From assembly GCA_963804955.1 (NCBI GenBank), contig CAWDSQ010000001.1:114905-178904 (forward strand): a DNA stretch of 64,000 bases, written 5' to 3'. How positions within the stretch are numbered: the stretch's first letter is position 1; every line of letters begins with the position of its first letter. The notes below the pieces were generated by a model that saw only the letters and a list, made by a program, of their open reading frames with translations, searched no databases and was not told where the DNA came from. The position numbers and the translations under genes are program-made. Positions 18,136 through 36,924 of this stretch are shown here, piece by piece. The stretch is from an uncultured delta proteobacterium. Its GTDB lineage: Bacteria; Desulfobacterota; WTBG01; CAIYCZ01; CAIRTM01.

Positions 18136-19623
18136 ATGAAACAGCGATCCTTCAGGATGTTTTCCAGTATGCTCTCGCTTACCGGCCTGTTCATTGCGGT
18201 TTTCAATATCGCACTGATAGTCGTTCTGTCGATTGCCGATGCCCTGTCCGCGGGCACACACCCGTATGCCGACCTGGTGATCTGGATCATGCTGCCGTGC
18301 GGCGTTTTGTTCGGCGCGGCCCTGATCATTGCCGGCATCCGGCGGCAGCGACGCACGAAAGGCGGGAGCCGCTTCCCGGTCATCGACCTTAACGATACCG
18401 GGCTGCGCAAAAAAGCGCTCGGCCTGCTGACGGTCCTGGTGCTGCTGTCGGTGCTCTATGCCTTTTCCGGGTATAAGGCCTATGAGTTTTCCGAATCAAA
18501 TACATTCTGCGGAGCCTGCCACACCGTGATGGGGCCTGAAACCAGGTCCAACGCCTACTCGCCACACGCACAGCTCCTGTGCACCAACTGCCACGTGGGG
18601 CCCGGGGCAAAGTACTATTTCATCTCCCATCTGAAAGGAGCCCGGGAGGGCTTCAATTACCTGCTCGACAGATACAGCCGGCCCCTTCATACGCCGATTG
18701 CGGCCCTGCGTCCATCCGAGCATATATGCGAAAACTGTCACGGCCCCAAGTACCAGTTAAACGAGCGGCTTGAAAGCCGCACCTATTTCATGTCCGACAA
18801 GGAGAATTCACGCAAGAAGATCAACCTGCTGTTTAAGCCGGGTAAAACGGACACCACGCTTGAGCAGCCGCCGAAAATGCACTGGCACTCAAGCACCACG
18901 GCTGAAATCGAGTACGCCGATACTGACCCGAAGCGGATCGAGATTCCGTGGATTCGCGTCAAGCGGCTCGACGGAACCGTGCGCACCTACCGCCGCGACG
19001 ACTCGAAGCTCTCGGACGACGACGCGGCAAAGGCCGGGACGAGGCGCATGGACTGCATGGACTGCCACAACCGGACGGGCCATCCCTTTAACCCCCCGGC
19101 GGCTATTCTGAACGCCATGCTCGGGGCGGGGTTCATTGATACGGGCCTGCCGGAGATTAAGCATGTCGGAGTCCAGACACTTGAAGCCTCCTATGCTTCC
19201 CAGGAGGAGGCAGCCAAAGGCATAGAAACGGCAATTCGTGACTTCTATCGCAAGGCCTATCCTGCTGTTGCAAAGGACAAGGAGGCGGCAATCACCTCAG
19301 CGATCACGGCGCTGCAGGGCGCCTACAGCCGCAACTACGACCCGCATATGAAGGTGAGCTGGCGCAGCTTTGGCAGCAATCAGGGGCATATGTATTCGCC
19401 GGGCTGCTTCCGCTGCCATGACGGCAAACACCGAAGCGATGACGGCGCTGTTCTGTCGCAGGACTGCAGCCTGTGCCACCTGCTGATCGAGCGTGTCCCC
19501 GGCCAGGATACTGCCGGAAGCAATCAGGCCGAGATCCGCGTGATGGATTATCCGCACCCCGTTGATATCGGCGACAGGTTGCAGACAATGATGTGTACGA
19601 AATGCCACGGCCCATCATCGTGA
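18136..19623 (+). CDS. Membrane-anchored NapC/NirT-like multiheme cytochrome c (7 CxxCH)
   Basis: Three N-terminal TM helices; ESNTFCGACHTVM.PE...SPH...CTNCHVGPG NapC/NirT signature; heme motifs CGACH, CTNCH, CENCH, CMDCH, CFRCH, CSLCH, CTKCH. Confidence 0.88.
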   Translation: MKQRSFRMFSSMLSLTGLFIAVFNIALIVVLSIADALSAGTHPYADLVIWIMLPCGVLFGAALIIAGIRRQRRTKGGSRFPVIDLNDTGLRKKALGLLTVLVLLSVLYAFSGYKAYEFSESNTFCGACHTVMGPETRSNAYSPHAQLLCTNCHVGPGAKYYFISHLKGAREGFNYLLDRYSRPLHTPIAALRPSEHICENCHGPKYQLNERLESRTYFMSDKENSRKKINLLFKPGKTDTTLEQPPKMHWHSSTTAEIEYADTDPKRIEIPWIRVKRLDGTVRTYRRDDSKLSDDDAAKAGTRRMDCMDCHNRTGHPFNPPAAILNAMLGAGFIDTGLPEIKHVGVQTLEASYASQEEAAKGIETAIRDFYRKAYPAVAKDKEAAITSAITALQGAYSRNYDPHMKVSWRSFGSNQGHMYSPGCFRCHDGKHRSDDGAVLSQDCSLCHLLIERVPGQDTAGSNQAEIRVMDYPHPVDIGDRLQTMMCTKCHGPSS

Positions 19624-19687: not shown

Positions 19688-21876
19688 ATGAAAAAAAGCA
19701 TACAACTTTGCATCATTGCCGCCGCAACACTGGCGAGCCTCCTTGCATGCTTCTTCGCCCCGGCGCCAGCCCCGGCTGAGGAGTCAAGCTGCTTAACCTG
19801 CCACCTGTGCGGTCCCATGCTCGTCAAAAACCGCGGCGTGGCCACGCCCATAGTCTCGGCCATGCAGTCAGGGGCCGGCTGAGGCGGTGCCGTGGCTCAG
19901 TTGGAGCCGCACATAAAAGTGCTTGTTTCCCGGGAGTTTCTTGCCACCGCCCATGGTCAAATCGCGTGCGGAACCTGCCACGGCGGCGACGCTGCCAGCA
20001 TGAGCAAAGCAGCCGCTCACAAGGGGATGGATGCATTTCCCTCCATAACCAATCCGCAGAATACCTGCGGCGCCTGCAAGGACCCGAAAGCGGCACAGCA
20101 CCGTGACATCGCCGCCTCGGCCAAAGATTCCCTGCACGCCAGCCTTGCCACCTTTACCGGGGTGCTCAAGAGCCGCGCGAATATGGAAAAATGGGAAACA
20201 ATCGACGAGGCTCGCAAGAACCACTGCGCCGCCTGTCACACGAGCTGCGGCGGCTGTCATGTGAGCCGTCCCAAATCAGCGCAGAAGGGCTTTATTGCGG
20301 GGCATATCTTTAAAAAGACCCCCGATCAGGTCAATCAGTGCACCGCCTGCCACGGCAGCCGCGTGGGCTATGAATTTTCAGGCCAGCGCGGCAGGGGTGA
20401 TATCCATGCGTCACAAGAGAGTATGACCTGCTCCTCCTGCCACAAGGCAAAAGAGATGCATGCTGCGGCAGCCAAAGACCTGCCGGGCCGCTATCACCTG
20501 CCGGAGGCGGCGCGCTGCGATGATTGTCACAAAGATATGGAGAAAAAGGCCGTGCGGCAGCACGCCGATCATATCGGCAAGGTGCAATGCCAGGTGTGCC
20601 ATTCGCAGACGTATGTCAACTGCTACAGTTGCCATGTGGGCAAAGACAGCCAGAACACGGCCTATTTCCAGAACCGTCTTGAAGTTGAAACCATGAAAAT
20701 CGGGCTCAACTATGACGCTGCAGCTCCGGGCGCCGGCTACCGCTTCATGCTGGTGCGCCACGAGCCGTCGTATCCGGAGATGTTCGATTTCTACGGCAAG
20801 GATCTCTTCACGAACTTCGGCAAGGTGCCCACCTGGAAGCGGACCTCGCCTCACAACATCCAGAAACTCACCTGGCAGGCCGCCAGCTGCAACCACTGCC
20901 ACGCTAATCGCGAGCTGTTCCTTGCAAACGCCGATCTTGCAGACTATGAAATAGGCAGCAAACAAGGCGGTTGTTGTTCCCGACGCCGACATGCCGAAAG
21001 CGGTGCAAGACAGCAGCAAGCTTGACATCGACATATCCCGGGTCAGAACCGGCATGGTGGTTGACGCCCGGTGGCTGCATGACAACAGCAGGCAGAAGGA
21101 TCTGGTCGTCATCGATGCCCGCAGCCGCGCTGCCTACGACAAGGGCCATATCGAAGGCGCCATTTCGCTGGACCCCCTGGTGAGCGGCCTGCGCACCGGC
21201 CCCAAAGCGAAGAACCCCTTCTCGCTTGAAGACCATGCCAAGATTGCCGGCATTTTCGGCAGCAGGGGAATAGCAGCCGAAGATCATATCGTGGTGTATG
21301 ACCAGAACGGCACCATGGCGGCAGGTCTGCTGTCTGTTCTGCAATGGGCCGGCGCTGCCAATGTCTCCTATTTGAACGGCGGCATTGAGGGGTGGCATCT
21401 GGCCGGCTTCCACACGAGCACTGAGCCGTATACCCGTGAAGCGCGCACCTTCGGAGGAACCGTCAGGCCGGAGCTGGTCGTCAGCAGCGCAGAGCTTACC
21501 GGGCTTCTGAAAAAGAACACGGTGGTGCTTATCGATACTCGCGCCATTGATCGGGCCAGGGGACTGACACAACATGAGCTGGCCGGCCGTGCAGGCGCTA
21601 TTGCCGGATCGGTCAATATCCCGCTCGGGGCTTTCTACATGGAAAACGGCTTTTTGAAGCAGCCGGTCCGAGCTGCTGTGGATGCTAGCCACCTATGGCG
21701 TCACGCCGGACAAGACCGTCATCACCACCTGCGACACCGGCATTGCTGCCGCAGATGCCTTTTTCGTCCTTCGGTATCTTGGATTTTCCAACGCCCGGGT
21801 GCATGAAGAAGCCTGGGTGGTGTGGTCTAACACAGTGGATATGACGCCGCTTCAGTGCGGCAGTGGTATTTTTTAG
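19688..21876 (+). CDS. Candidate selenocysteine-containing multiheme cytochrome c fused to tandem rhodanese domains (UGA at 19880-19882; +1 frameshifts near 20955 and 21666)
   Basis: ORFs 19688-19882 and 19892-21025 are in the same frame, separated only by TGA and GGC GGT GCC. There are 10 CxxCH and 1 CxxCK. Removing one G at each of two GG sites joins the rhodanese pieces (IDAR...YDKGHIEGAI; IDTR...GSVNIP; ITTCDTGIAA). Confidence 0.75.
19883..19912 (+). promoter_or_regulatory. Putative bacterial SECIS element
   Basis: Stem GUGGCUC (19892-19898) / GAGCCGC (19904-19910) with loop AGUUG; the loop starts 16 nt after UGA and has G at position 2 followed by U. Confidence 0.65.
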
Positions 21877-22139: not shown

Positions 22140-23328
22140 ATGAAAACGAGCGTCGCAAAGACCGTGAGGACCACCCCTTTAAAATTATTACCCTTTTTCC
22201 TGATCGCAAGCCTGTTTACTAGTGCTTCCTTCGGGGTGCTCGAAAGAGCAGAAGGCGCCGGCCCTGCCGCCGCCGGACGTTGAGGTTATCGATGTGGTGC
22301 AGAAAGATGTGCCCATCCAGTCCGAGTGGATCGGCACGATCGACGGCATGGTGAACGCCACTATCAGGGCGCAGGTATCGGGCTATCTCATCAAGCAGAA
22401 TTACAAGGAAGGCTCGCTGGTAAAAAAAGATGATGTGCTGTTTGAAATAGACCCCCGGCCGTTTCAGGCTGCCTTTGACCAGGCGCAGGCCGAGCTTGCG
22501 CAGCGGCAGGCCCTCTGGGGCACGTCAAAGGCCAATCTTGCGCGCATCCGGCCTCTGGCAAAGAAAAATGCCGTGAGCCAGAAAGACCTCGACGATGCCG
22601 TGGGCGCTGAGCAGTCGCTGCAGGCCGGCGTTCTTGCGGCCAAAGCAGCTTTCGAAAAAGCGGCGCTTGATCTTGAATTTACAAAAATAAAATCACCCAT
22701 CGACGGCATTGCAGGCCTTGCCGCCGCACAGATCGGCAACCTCGTGGGGCCGCAAACCGCCGACCTCACCACGGTTTCCACGGTTGACCCGGTGAAGGTC
22801 TATGTGGCGATCAGCGAGCAGGAATACATGCGGTTCATGCAGGATAGCGCCCCGCACAGAACCCCTGGCGCTGGACCTTGTGCTGTGCCGACGGCAGCCT
22901 GTTTCCGCATAAGGGGAAAGTCGCTTTTGCCGACCGGCAGGTTGATGTGAAGACCGGGTCGATTCGCGTTGCCACCGAGTTTCCCAATCCCGGCAATGTG
23001 CTGCGGCCGGGCCAGTATGCGAAGGTCAGGGCGTCCGTCAAAACGCGCACCGGCGCGCTGCTGGTGCCGCAGCGGGCGGTTGCCGACATGCAGGGCAGCT
23101 ATCAGCTGGCCGTCGTCGGCAAGGACAATAAGGTGAGCGTGCGTCGCCGTGAAGGTGGCCGAGCGCATCGGCTCGCTCTGGATCATCAGCGAAGGCCTGC
23201 AGCCCGGCGACCGCGTGATCGTGGAAGGCATTCAGAAGGTCAAGGACGGCATGACGGTTGTGCCGAAACTTTCAGGCGACAGCCCTGCACCAGCGCCGGC
23301 GCCTGCGCCGGCACCCGACAAGAGGTAG
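22140..23328 (+). CDS. RND efflux periplasmic adaptor (membrane fusion protein), at least three frameshifts
   Basis: PSGC lipobox-like motif, IRAQVSGYL, LFEIDPRPFQA, IKSPIDGIAG, FPNPGNVLRPGQY and GLQPGDRVIVEG in successive frames. Confidence 0.85.
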
Positions 23329-23334
23329 CCAGCC

Positions 23335-26300
23335 ATGTCAAAATTCTTCATCAATCGCCCTATTGTGGCCATGGTTATCTCGATCTTCATGGTCATCCTC
23401 GGCGCTGTGGCCATGTCGGGACTTCCCATCGCCCAGTTTCCCAACATTGTTCCGCCGGCTATCCAGGTGAATGCCGTCTACACCGGCGCCGACGCCGTCA
23501 CCGTGGAGCAGTCGGTGGCTACCCCGATCGAGCAGCAGATGTCCGGCGTTGACAATCTGGACTACATGTACTCCGTCAATGCCAACGACGGTTCCATGAC
23601 CCTCTATAACTACTTCGAACTGGGGACCAACGCCAACACCGACCAGATCCTCTCCCAGATGCGCCAGAACCAGGCGTCATCGCAACTGCCGGCCGATGTC
23701 AACAACTACGGTGTTACGGTGGCGAAATCGACCTCGGCGCCGTACCTCATGTTCGCTCTCTCTTCTCCCAACAACACCTACGACAACGTCTTTCTGGCCA
23801 ACTACTCCTACATCAACATCAACGACCAGATGACCCGCATCAAGGGGGTCGCCAGCGTCTCGGTCTTCGGCGCCGGCCAGTACGCCATGCGGTATCTGGG
23901 TCCGGCCGGACCAGCTTGCCAAGCTCAACATCACCATCCCGGAGATCATGAACGCGGTCAAGGCCCAGAATACCGTCAACCCGGCCGGACAGGTCGGGAG
24001 CCAGCCGGTGCCGAAGGGGCAGGAGTTCACCTACACGGTTCGCGCCCAGGGGCGTCTGCAGAGCGAGGCCGAGTTCGGCAATATCGTGCTGCGGGCCAAT
24101 CCGGACGGTTCCATCGTGCGGGTGAAGGACGTGGCCCGCATCGAGCTTGGGGCACAGAACTACAAACAGGAAGGGCGCCTCAACGGCAAGCCCTGCGCCC
24201 TGGTCGCCCTGTACCAGATGCCGGGAACCAACGCCATGGAATCGGCCAACGGCGCCAAGAAACTGATGGATGGAGTTGAAGAAGAGCTTCCCGCCTGACC
24301 TGGACTACACGGTGGCGCTGGACACCACCCTGGCGGTCTCCGAAGGGATAAAGGAAATCAAGAGCACCTTCTTCGAGGCGCTGATTCTGGTCATCCTGGT
24401 GGTCTTTATCTTCCTCCAGGGGTGGCGGGCCACGCTGATCCCGCTCCTGGCGGTGCCGGTGTCGCTGGTGGGAACCTTCGCGCTCTTCCCGCTGCTCGGC
24501 TTTTCCATCAACACCCTCTCGCTTTTCGGGATGGTCCTTGCCATCGGCCTGGTCGTGGATGACGCCATTGTCGTGGTCGAGGCGGTGGAGCATCATATCG
24601 AAAAAGGCCTGAGCCCGAAGGATGCCACGTTCAAGGCCATGGAGGAGGTGTCCGGCCCGGTCATCGCCATCGCCATCATCCTGGCGGCGGTCTTCGTGCC
24701 GACGGCCTTCATCCCCGGCATTACCGGCCAGCTTTACCAGCAGTTCGCCGTGACCATCGCCGTCTCGGTCATCATTTCGGCCTTCAACGCCCTCACCCTT
24801 TCTCCGGCGCTCTGTGCACTGCTGCTGAAGCCGAAGGTCAAGGGAACCGGCCCGCTGCAGAAGTTCTACGACTGGTTCAACCGGGTCTTCGGCCGGGCCA
24901 CCGACGGCTACGTGTCAATCTGCGGCGCCGCCATCAGGAAAAGCAAGACCAGTCTGCTCCTGCTGCTCGGGGTGACCGTCCTGGCCGGGGTAGCGGGTAA
25001 GAGCCATTCCGACCGGCTTCCTCCCCGACGAGGACCAGGGCTTTATCTTCGCCAATATCCAGCTCCCCAATTCCGCTTCGCTGCAGCGGACCAGTGAAGT
25101 GGCCCGTCAGGCCGAAGAGATCATCATGAAAACCCCGGGCGTCCAGTACTGTTCGACGATTCTCGGCTACAGCCTGCTGAGCCAGGTCAGCTAACACCTA
25201 CAGCGCCTTTTTCTTCATCTCCCTGAAAGAGTGGAAGGAGCGGAAAGCTCCGGAAGAGCAGTACGAGGCGATCAAGGCCTCCCTGACGAAAAAGATGGGC
25301 GGGCTGCCGGGCGCCATCGGCTTCCCGTTCCCGCCACCGGCCATCATGGGGATCGGCACCTCGGGCGGGGCCACCTTCATGCTGCAGGACAAGGCCGGCA
25401 AGGATGTCGCCTTCCTGGCCGAGAACACGCAGAAATTCATCGAAGCGGCCAGGAAAAGGCCTGAACTGGCCCGGGTCACCACCACCTTCATCCCCACCGT
25501 GCCGCAGCTGTTCGTGGATGTGGACCGGGACAAGGTGCTGAAGCAGGGGGTTGAGATCAGCGACGTCTACAAGGTCCTGCAGAGCTTCATGGGGAGCGGT
25601 TTCATCAACTACTTCAACAAATTCGGCCGCCAGTGGCAGACCTATATCCAGGCCGAGGGGGACTACCGGACCAATATCGAGAATATCGGCCAGTTCTATG
25701 TGCGCAACAAGGACGGGCAATCAGTGCCCCTCTCGGCGCTGACTTCGGTTCGCAGCATCACCGGCCCGGAATTCACCATGCGCTTCAACCTCTACCGCTC
25801 GGCCCAGATCAACGCCACCGCGGCCCCCGGCTTCAGTTCGGCCCAGGCCATGAAGGCGCTGGAAGAGACCTTTGCCCAGACCATGCCGCGGGAGATGGGG
25901 TACGACTACAGCGGCATGTCGTTCCAGGAGAAGAAGGCCCAGAAGGGGGTCTCGCCGATGGCGATCTTCGCCTTCTCGTTCCTGTGCGTCTTCCTGATCC
26001 TGGCGGCCCAGTACGAAAGCTGGTCGCTGCCGTTCTCGGTCCTGCTGGGAACGCCGGTGGCCGTGGCCGGAGCCTTCGCCGGCCTGCTCTTCGGAAAATT
26101 CGAGAACAACATCTACGCCCAGATCGGTCTGGTCATGCTGATCGGCCTGGCGGCCAAGAACGCCATCCTCATCGTCGAATTCGCCAAGATGGAGTATGAG
26201 AAGGGCAAACCGCTGGTGGAAGCGACCCTGGAGGGCGCCAGGCTGCGCTTGCGGCCGATCCTGATGACCTCCTTCGCCTTCATCCTCGGCTGCGTGCCGC

Positions 26301-35591: not shown

Positions 35592-36924
35592 ATGCGCACA
35601 TTTTTCAGAGAGACGCAACAGCCGGGTTTGCGGACCCCACTTGTTTTTTGCTTCATTGCCCTCATGCTCTCCGGCTGCACGCATATGGGCGGTTATCTCG
35701 GCTTTTGGCAGCATCAGCATGAGCTGAAGAAAGCCTTTCATGAAGACCCCCGCGCCGACCTGCTTCGGCAGCTTGACCCGCAAGACTGCTTTCTGCTTGC
35801 GGGTGCCTTTGCTTTCACGAGTGATTATAATAAGCCGGTGCTGGTTGTTGCTGTCACCGACAGGTTCAAGAAGCGCGAGATCGTTGCCCAAAGAATTCTG
35901 CAGCCGGGCGTCTTTCTCTATCAGGCCTACCTTCCCGAAGGCCACTATGACCTGTATTTTTTCGCGGACCTTGATGAAAACGATTTCTTCGACGCCCATG
36001 AGATGATCGGCCAAACAGCCGGTGAGCCGATACGGGTAAACAGGGCGGAAGTTAAAGACGGCCTGACGGTTCTCGGCCCTTCCTTCATTTTCGATCTCAG
36101 CCGCCCGGCAACAACCGCTTTGCCGGTGAGAGTCAGGGTTCGTGACCAGGCGTATGCCTTTGATTCTCTTGATGACGGGTTTTTTGATCCGCACTACGGC
36201 GACCTTGGACTGTATAAACCCATGGCCTTCATGGCCCATACGCAGCGCTATGTATTTTCCCTTGAGAAACTGGATCCAGGGAAAACGATGGTGCTTTTTG
36301 TCCATGGGGTTGGGGGCACACCCCGGGATTTTAAATATCTGGTTGCCGGCCTTGATACAAAACGCTATCAGCCGTGGTTTTACTTTTATCCGTCGGGCAT
36401 GCCGCTGCAAAAACTCGGCTCCTTGCTTGCGCGGATCATCAGGTATCTTACCGCGGCTCAATATTTTCATGTGCAGCGCGTTATTGTCGTGGCGCACAGC
36501 ATGGGCGGGCTGGTGGCGCTGTCCGCCTTGAATGAGCTTTACCGCGACGGCGCGCCGCCATATTTGCAAGGATATGTCTCCTTTGATTCTCCCTATGGCG
36601 GGGTTGAAGCAGCCAAAAAGGGCGTGGAAAAAGCCCCTGCGGTAGTGCCGTCATGGCGTGATGTGGCAACCGGAAGTCCCTTTCTTGAACAGCTCTACCA
36701 GGGGCCTGCACTGGCCGCACTTCCTTTTTATCTTTTTCGGCTACACAACCGGCGACAGCAGCGACGGAACCATAACCCTGCAGAGCCAGCTGGAGGCAAA
36801 GGTGCATTTTTCGGCTTCTAAAAGCTACGGCTTCAATGCCACCCATGTGGGCATCCTGAATGACGATGCGGCCCGGCAGCAATTCTACCGGGTGCTTGCA
36901 GGTCTTGACGGTAACGGGAATTGA
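35592..36924 (+). CDS. Lipoprotein alpha/beta hydrolase, frameshift near 36735
   Basis: LSGC lipobox, VLFVHGVGG, AHSMGG elbow and SPYGG; SDGTI and THVGIL are in the next frame. Confidence 0.8.

Follow-up and report, generated by a model that had tools for sequence, protein, structure and literature searches.

An in-frame UGA within a predicted eleven-heme cytochrome fused to tandem rhodanese domains: a candidate selenoprotein of periplasmic sulfur metabolism in an uncultured delta proteobacterium

Does the UGA codon that closes a short open reading frame (ORF) in the genome of an uncultured delta proteobacterium end a small protein, or does it encode selenocysteine (Sec) in a much longer one? 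The ORF lies within a 64,000-nucleotide stretch of contig CAWDSQ010000001.1 (assembly GCA_963804955.1, positions 114,905 to 178,904), hereafter the window, to which all positions given without a contig name refer. It encodes 64 amino acids (aa), comprising a signal peptide and one heme-binding motif (CLTCH), and it ends at TGA 19880-19882 in the context S-G-A-G-[TGA]-G-G-A-V-A-Q-L-E-P, beyond which the same frame remains open to about position 20953. An earlier, sequence-only reading of this locus had described the ORF in these terms and had proposed that it is the beginning of a hidden selenoprotein; all of its coordinates for the ORF check out. We consider it probable that bases 19688-21876 form one gene, which encodes an exported protein of about 728 aa that joins a Sec-containing eleven-heme cytochrome to a tandem rhodanese and acts as a periplasmic reductase of sulfane sulfur.

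The conservation of the codon itself provides a first line of evidence of recoding. TGA occupies exactly this site in all 85 homologous loci that contain the site, made up of 77 of the 80 loci recovered on genome contigs in a scan of species-representative genomes and all eight loci of relatives; the remaining three loci (L094, L098, and L107) lack the N-terminal region, which falls at a contig end or in a disrupted 5′ part. None of the 85 loci carries TAA, TAG, or a sense codon at the Sec site. The eight homologs detected by a six-frame search of 60 related genomes and the window's own genome (G000) are 36-40% identical, and each contains exactly one in-frame TGA, embedded in the motif G-E-G-U-G-G-S-V-x-P-L-E-P-W. 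Protein similarity extends on both sides of the TGA, and the segment holding the first heme shares one frame with the body of the protein in the homologs. Conservation of TGA at this site is thus far beyond chance. The sequence-only reading had itself raised the concern that the codon might be a miscall; in the contigs of three sequencing runs that bridge it (X1, X2, and X20), no difference at the TGA bases appears among the differences listed. X20 is an RNA-library run, and its bridging contig is not evidence of transcription. We also observed a second copy of the gene (L069) in the metagenome-assembled genome that carries L035, in which the TGA is kept and an extra in-frame stop follows nine codons downstream (LEP-stop-EK); this copy may be a decaying paralog or reflect a sequencing error.

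A second line of evidence is the RNA element that follows the codon. The bacterial selenocysteine insertion sequence (SECIS) model, as given in passages of a selenoproteome review (PMC13188914), calls for a small apical loop 16-37 nt downstream of the UGA, with a G near its start that is followed by G or U. The hairpin GUGGCUC-AGUUG-GAGCCGC at 19892-19910, which the earlier reading had singled out, agrees with the criteria in those passages: its loop begins 16 nt past the UGA and has G and U at positions 2 and 3. The homologs share the loop consensus A/C-G-U-U-G, likewise starting 16 nt past the UGA. We evaluated the 7-bp stem on an ungapped alignment anchored at the UGA (83 sequences, 69 distinct; columns 13-19 against columns 25-31), where 93.4% of helix cells were paired, compared to 30.8-47.0% when the 3′ partner was slid by 1-3 columns. 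Of the seven pairs, five are altered on both sides (as in GCU/GAG to GUU/GAA, GCC/GGG, GAU/GAU, and ACG/GCG), and none of 500 shuffles matched the observed values on any of five measures. The synonymous positions of the encoded Val-Ala-Pro-Leu-Glu-Pro are almost fixed in the homologs, as expected if the RNA is under selection.

Third, the genome encodes the complete selenocysteine machinery, the absence of which the sequence-only reading had named as a refutation. selA (383 bits; G000 C25:34602-35675), selB (345 bits), and selD (334 bits; G000:C28:1709-2632, locus L026) all scored over their cut-offs, and a tRNA-Sec with anticodon tca was detected with aragorn at 36270-36365. The selD gene has one in-frame TGA of its own, and it is therefore a Sec-type selenophosphate synthetase. 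By its coordinates the tRNA-Sec gene appears to be adjacent to selA; the aragorn output line names no contig.

Lastly, Sec is exchanged for Cys in more distant members of the family. Among 33 cluster representatives that span the site, Cys aligns with Sec in ten, a number that rises to 14 with the inclusion of four rows offset by one column; the same representatives also include Trp (5), Tyr (3), Met (2), His (1), and single instances of other residues. Together with the invariant TGA of the 85 loci and the similarity on both flanks, this bears out the expectation that homologs keep TGA or Cys at GxG-U-GG. Codon conservation, the RNA element, the machinery, and Sec/Cys exchange are four independent lines that agree in identifying UGA 19880-19882 as a predicted selenocysteine codon. 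That the UGA is instead a true stop, separating a 64-aa exported heme peptide from a distinct, signal-less cytochrome gene, is extremely improbable in our estimation. The locus is annotated in this way in every database entry seen among the matches listed, and a GTG is present at 19892, but such a stop would have to be TGA and never TAA or TAG in 85 of 85 loci, with frame and similarity running across it, a covarying hairpin behind it, and Cys in its place in distant homologs with continuous ORFs. It would also leave a c-type cytochrome that could not be assembled, given that cytochrome c maturation cannot supply hemes to a protein without a signal peptide. All 13 aligned database homologs, picked from 120 listed of 962 matches, begin just after the UGA, a uniformity which indicates that the close family has been systematically cut at its N-terminus by gene callers.

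The sequence-only reading had further proposed that two +1 shifts, at 20954-20955 and 21665-21666, conceal a single protein that ends in rhodanese domains. Approximately 60 complete loci encode proteins of 698-733 aa that start with a signal peptide, place Sec at residue 59-78, and contain both 11 heme sites (of which 10 are canonical in the window's own clade) and a rhodanese loop of the form C-[DN]-T-G, and the listed database homologs, mostly 632-654 aa long and missing their N-terminus, likewise combine cytochrome and rhodanese Pfam domains. The two parts are encoded together in these intact loci, and the rhodanese fusion is genuine. Alignment of the intact homolog L031 to the window with tblastn placed its residues 1-420 at 19688-20950 (frame 2), residues 423-658 at 20958-21665 (frame 3), and residues 652-714 at 21646-21834 (frame 1), with 68-76% identity to the window product across the three colinear pieces. 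The succession of frames 2, 3, and 1 means that each break amounts to a single extra base, and the changes of frame fall where the shifts had been placed.

We compared both breaks with contigs assembled from three DNA runs of three different studies (X1, X2, and X3; 90-99% likeness), using the best-supported differences, beyond which the table of differences holds 98 further rows. At the first break, the contigs that differ from the window in X1, X2, and X3 are one base shorter, with the gap at 20952 or 20954; in X3 these are only contigs at 4.51 and 6.4 of 17.9 summed depth. At the second break, a base is missing at 21665 (X1 and X2) or 21667 (X3). The evidence on the breaks thus comes from related DNA, which lacks one base at each, and not from mapped reads as the earlier reading had suggested. 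An RND efflux operon at 22222-25097 is also broken by several frame changes: the AcrB-type gene immediately downstream of the selenoprotein gene falls into three ORFs in different frames, which cover profile positions 1-185, 205-312, and 305-540, and its membrane-fusion partner is split as well. These broken genes point to an indel-prone assembly, and other split genes in the window should be read accordingly. Because related contigs from three studies are free of the extra bases and neighboring genes are broken too, both frame breaks are most likely assembly errors, and the gene is most likely intact in the organism, with a product of about 728 aa. It is very unlikely, in our view, that both shifts are real and that the gene is a decaying pseudogene from which only the cytochrome part, or nothing, is made. 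The window sequence does carry both shifts, and the absence of the gene from four genomes of the same genus would fit a losable accessory gene. Decay is nevertheless hard to reconcile with the related DNA of X1, X2, and X3, with 68-76% identity to L031 over the whole length without stops in the correct frames, and with the splitting of unrelated AcrB and membrane-fusion genes, which points to indel errors throughout the assembly.

The C-terminal part of the protein is readily classified. Both rhodanese pieces match PF00581, the C-terminal 280 aa match Escherichia coli SseA and bovine rhodanese at a profile E-value of 1e-37, and the modeled fold superimposes on Azotobacter RhdA (1e0c) with a template-modeling score of 0.87. 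As the earlier reading had described, the first domain has Asp at the catalytic position and the second has a Cys that opens a CDTGIAA loop, so that the first domain is predicted to be inactive and the second to carry the persulfide-forming Cys. The same division between an inactive Asp domain 1 and a domain 2 with Cys in a six-residue loop is found in the tandem rhodaneses SseA (1urh), bovine rhodanese, and RhdA; here, in contrast, the rhodanese is attached to the C-terminal side of an exported multiheme cytochrome with Sec. Its loop, C-D/N-T-G-x-x, also departs from the rhodanese motifs CRKGVT and CG[ST]GVT.

The cytochrome part is less easily placed. The sequence-only reading had counted about ten hemes; its nine canonical CxxCH motifs after the UGA stand, but with CLTCH before the UGA and one variant motif the total comes to 11 sites. 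The variant, site 3, reads CGACK-DPKAAQ-H (CGACK-x6-H, 20066-20101) and corresponds to a plain CxxCH in most relatives. A Lys after the second Cys, together with a 7-residue insertion before the His, is confined to the window, loci L031-L033, and proteins P0003-P0005, all other homologs having plain CxxCH; the site may be a CxxCK-type Lys-ligated heme, as in NrfA, or one with a displaced His ligand. No NCBIfam model came near its cut-off for the cytochrome part, the Pfam matches were to generic heme modules only, and searching protein P0001 against PDB chains by sequence returned nothing useful (best E-value 0.53). A first AlphaFold2 model, built for full-length L031 from 22 sequences, was set aside, as its cytochrome was unreliable (predicted local distance difference test score (pLDDT) of roughly 40-75, with the Sec loop below 50) and Foldseek retrieved only rhodaneses with it. 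Modeling the cytochrome domain with 97 diverse sequences gave a mean pLDDT of 89.2 and a predicted template-modeling score of 0.83, and the nearest solved fold was then octaheme tetrathionate reductase (OTR) of Shewanella oneidensis (1sp3), identified by VIA-align (Z 9.1, root-mean-square deviation 4.6 Å over 265 residues, model residues 86-444; the next match, HAO, had Z 4.4), by Foldseek (top match, E-value 2.2e-3), and by the family profile (E-value 1e-11). The N-terminal module formed by heme 1 and the Sec loop lies outside the region aligned to 1sp3.

In an alignment with 22 recoded references, the 11 motif histidines are accompanied by at most ten other conserved histidines, and no Cys is conserved outside the heme motifs and the Sec site. 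Because the 11 sites have at most ten other His and no spare Cys, and because the residues that replace Sec in Sec-less relatives are mostly capable of acting as ligands, it is conceivable, if doubtful, that Sec is the distal axial ligand of one heme, which would be a natural His/Sec heme c of a kind so far undescribed, or that it caps a catalytic heme that is five-coordinate. The features of the locus are collected in Table 1.

Table 1 Features of the selenoprotein locus and its upstream neighbor, in window coordinates
Feature	Position	Strand	Basis
Upstream heptaheme cytochrome, 495 aa, membrane-anchored, NapC/NirT/NrfH type	18136..19623	+	Pfam, NCBIfam, translation
Start of the selenoprotein gene: Sec-type (secretory) signal peptide and heme site 1 (CLTCH)	19688..19879	+	ATG at 19688; segment conserved in frame in homologs
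In-frame UGA, predicted selenocysteine codon, residue 65, motif G-x-G-U-G-G	19880..19882	+	TGA in 85/85 loci
Cytochrome body, heme sites 2-11	19883..20953	+	Read-through translation; AlphaFold2 model; fold and profile matches to 1sp3
SECIS-type hairpin, 7-bp stem, loop AGUUG	19892..19910	+	Covariation; synonymous sites nearly fixed
First +1 frame break, one base more than in relatives	20952..20955	+	Contigs of X1, X2, X3; tblastn frame change
Linker, rhodanese domain 1 (Asp at 21300-21302), first part of rhodanese domain 2	20956..21665	+	Pfam PF00581 5e-22; alignment to intact homologs; tandem-rhodanese profile E-value 1e-37
Second +1 frame break, one base more than in relatives	21665..21667	+	Contigs of X1, X2, X3; tblastn frame change
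Rest of rhodanese domain 2, CDTGIAA loop (Cys codon 21730-21732), stop TAG 21874-21876	21668..21876	+	Pfam PF00581 1e-4; loop C-[DN]-T-G conserved in homologs

At the 3′ end of the gene, a GC-rich hairpin followed by a T-run (21846-21873) overlaps the last codons and is terminator-like, which suggests the end of a transcript; a promoter and terminator scan returned two promoter-like sites, compared to 1.6 expected.

We next asked how the protein relates to cytochrome-type selenoproteins that are already known. It shares with OTR the heme-core fold of sites 2-11 and the predicted character of a periplasmic multiheme enzyme of sulfur-oxyanion chemistry, and the OTR family also has Sec forms, in which Sec replaces a Cys just before heme 2. 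OTR differs in having eight hemes, an N-N/S-F-C/U motif before heme 2, and no rhodanese fusion, whereas the window family has 11 heme sites, lacks the NNFC/U motif, and carries its Sec on an extra N-terminal module of heme 1 and loop. The OTR profile TIGR04315 scored only 19.2 bits (E-value 5e-4), against a cut-off of 375, and had no match in G000 at an E-value of 1e-30 or below. Among 301 genomes of the phylum, 43 have OTR genes over this cut-off, and these genes often carry one TGA; in loci L133, L135, L138, and L139 it replaces the Cys of N-N/S-F-C, 12-13 residues before heme 2. A Sec-type OTR also appears in the table of the selenoproteome review, as far as its passages go (PMC13188914). 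Thus, in the nearest structural relatives, Sec has been recruited next to a catalytic heme, at a different place in the sequence.

The sequence-only reading had instead pointed to ExtKL of Geobacter as the known precedent. MccSep/ExtKL (GSU2937-2936 of Geobacter sulfurreducens) is indeed a periplasmic multiheme selenoprotein that has been called as two genes and has a UGA with a downstream hairpin, and passages of a recent study establish it as a proven polysulfide reductase whose gene cluster also encodes the rhodanese-like ExtH (Mihara et al. 2026, PMC13510729). According to those passages it also reduces selenite, less efficiently than polysulfide, and its family is defined by five heme motifs. 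In MccSep, which has five hemes, however, Sec lies near the C-terminus, in a PDGUP motif that belongs to an Ig-like domain, with another Cys serving as the ligand of heme 2, whereas in the window family, with its 11 heme sites, Sec is residue 65 within GxGUGG, there is no extra conserved Cys, and the rhodanese is fused. The ExtKL genes that we fetched have HR(I/L)PDGUP near the C-terminus, and an hhalign comparison with ExtKL covered 89 columns of heme motifs (probability 83.5%) in which the Sec sites do not correspond. Protein P0001 had no match to the family model NF040886 (cut-off 250 bits) at an E-value of 0.01 or below, and a genome search with this model found true members only in G058 and G060, the window locus not being among the matches. 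The kinship with ExtKL consequently does not hold at the Sec site, where the two are not homologous, and the nearest solved fold is OTR.

A third family, GSU2204 (NF041027), resembles the window protein in being a catalogued heme-motif selenoprotein of Desulfobacterota, and differs in being an outer-membrane beta-barrel of the MtrB/PioB type, as described in passages of PMC13188914; its model gave no match at an E-value of 0.01 or below. ExtKL, the GSU2204 family, and Sec-type OTR are the cytochrome-type selenoproteins in the table passages of that review, and by NCBIfam profiles none of them matches the window family. Searches of full-text literature on multiheme or undecaheme selenoproteins with rhodanese did not find a description of the family, with tables S1 and S2 of PMC13510729, which list MccSep homologs, lying outside the search. 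Passages of papers on cable bacteria, MISO, sulfur disproportionation, and Dissulfuribacter proteomics (PMC13047784, PMC12545173, PMC12998232, and PMC13490349) do not mention the protein. The earlier suspicion that a combination of Sec, multiheme cytochrome, and rhodanese had not been characterized therefore agrees with the literature found, and we conclude that the window protein belongs to a distinct family of multiheme cytochrome selenoproteins, with a Sec module of its own and, in the branch of the window, a built-in sulfur carrier.

This family is sizeable. We detected 433 family representatives at an E-value of 1e-3 or below in a library clustered at 50% identity, and 962 matches at an E-value of 0.001 or below in a collection clustered at 90%, among the 7999 candidates sharing most words. 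An unfused lipoprotein form, with 36-40% identity, is present in five of 16 genomes of the same taxonomic family; the fused gene appears to be an accessory one, perhaps acquired by transfer. In the window it is preceded, 64 nt upstream and on the same strand, by a heptaheme cytochrome gene whose translation has seven CxxCH motifs and three hydrophobic N-terminal segments and whose profile matches are PF03264 (1.3e-6), PF14522 (1.6e-10), and the NCBIfam NrfH model (4.4e-10, below its cut-off). We take this architecture to resemble that of inner-membrane quinol dehydrogenases such as ImcH, and the neighbor is a candidate quinol dehydrogenase feeding the selenoprotein. A heptaheme homolog adjoins the gene in 21 of 88 loci, either preceding it in the same orientation or following it in convergent orientation, and some of 31 loci that were scanned have SulP, CysZ, TauE, or YeeE-type transporters, ATP sulfurylase/APS kinase, or a molybdopterin oxidoreductase nearby. 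The genome, which is 87% complete, has no dsrA over the cut-off and an AprA-like match that is sub-threshold only; given the lack of such a dsrA, sulfur respiration fits better than a Dsr-based metabolism.

By analogy, the protein would use electrons from quinol to reduce sulfane sulfur in the periplasm, acting on polysulfide and possibly on thiosulfate or tetrathionate. The analogy draws on OTR for the fold, on MccSep and ExtH for the joint occurrence of Sec, heme, and rhodanese, and on the Sud/Psr system; the periplasmic Sud of Wolinella is a rhodanese that feeds polysulfide reductase. In the mechanism that we propose, the rhodanese Cys would take up sulfane sulfur from polysulfide or thiosulfate as a persulfide, and Sec, on its flexible Gly-rich loop, would attack the persulfide sulfur beside the catalytic heme. 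Electrons would pass from menaquinol through the adjacent heptaheme NapC/NirT-type cytochrome into the heme chain, the Se-S/S-S bond would be cleaved, and sulfide would be released.

Two other substrates or directions deserve consideration. The same protein might run as an oxidase of thiosulfate, sulfide, or polysulfide in the manner of TsdA, delivering electrons to the quinone pool or to other cytochromes in disproportionation or sulfide oxidation. We hold this to be unlikely, while recognizing that multiheme chains are reversible wires and that many carriers of the gene are titled Desulfocapsa, Desulfofustis, Desulfurivibrionaceae, Desulfobulbaceae, and Nitrospirota, groups that include sulfur disproportionators and sulfide oxidizers. 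The genome has no dsrA over the cut-off, oxidation finds no anchor in a sequence that does not fix direction, and the nearest characterized analogs, OTR and MccSep, act reductively, a role which for OTR is given by its name. For MccSep this role is documented in the passages of PMC13510729, and the side activity on selenite described there raises a further alternative, a periplasmic selenite or tellurite reductase or detoxifier in which the rhodanese is a selenium carrier. This handling of selenium or tellurium oxyanions appears quite unlikely to us. The Geobacter ext cluster with its rhodanese-like ExtH is named a selenite/tellurite reduction operon in NCBIfam, and homolog P0004 has weak matches to ExtN, ExtO, ExtM, and ExtH, yet all matches to Ext models fall far under their cut-offs (16.9-36.2 bits against 200-800), MccSep itself prefers polysulfide, and most of the freshwater and sediment habitats with near-identical DNA contain little selenite, as judged from run labels and with small shares only. 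Sulfane-sulfur reduction remains the reading that we favor.

Several observations nonetheless count against parts of this interpretation. Some distant homologs depart from Sec and Cys, with Tyr, His, Met, Trp, or Pro at the site (P0125, P0131, P0144, P0163, P0185, and locus L123), and one of these, P0125, is a 715-aa rhodanese-fused form with Tyr; the existence of such forms means that Sec or Cys is not required in every member of the superfamily. We considered whether the Trp forms could be TGA mis-translated under another genetic code, and found that the only close DNA, L123 (position about 1600), which is 77% identical to the Trp form P0163, carries CCG (Pro) at the site, so that genuine non-Sec residues do occur and some distant clades have truly lost Sec/Cys; the Trp forms themselves may still be mis-translated TGA. 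The 60 nt after the UGA, folded alone, are no stabler than shuffled sequence (z 0.21), and the support for the hairpin accordingly comes from covariation rather than folding energy. Confidence in the cytochrome model is lowest at the Sec loop (pLDDT 59-68), which makes the nearness of Sec to a heme a prediction only. In the search for runs of the source sample, the best run contained only 0.32 of the sampled words, and there is a small probability that the frameshifts are real in this strain. The gene had no match in the four same-genus genomes (G001-G004; completeness 76-90%), 67 of the 88 loci have no adjacent NapC/NirT gene, neighborhoods vary, and most neighbors in the 31 scanned loci are unrelated to sulfur. 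Finally, the direction of electron flow is not fixed by anything in the sequence, and the proposed role would rest on analogy.

Only in 2026, with MccSep (PMC13510729), was it demonstrated that multiheme cytochrome selenoproteins are genuine enzymes of sulfur respiration. The family described here is separate from MccSep and larger, it has its Sec in a different module, and in the window's branch a sulfur-carrier rhodanese is built in. The database entries seen are all cut at the N-terminus, carry the labels 'rhodanese-like' or 'SseA', and look cytoplasmic, and metabolic reconstructions of sediment and groundwater Desulfobacterota and Nitrospirota consequently miss a predicted exported, selenium-dependent redox enzyme. 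If the protein does act in sulfane-sulfur reduction or disproportionation, it would bear on how Desulfobacterota and Nitrospirota process S0 and polysulfide in the periplasm. The family also offers a test case for Sec-heme chemistry: should Sec ligate or cap a heme, then together with the fused rhodanese it would form a self-contained path from sulfur carrier through Se-heme to an 11-heme wire, and the protein could fill the place of the periplasmic enzyme for sulfur reduction or disproportionation that is still missing in many Desulfobulbia, Syntrophia, and Nitrospirota.

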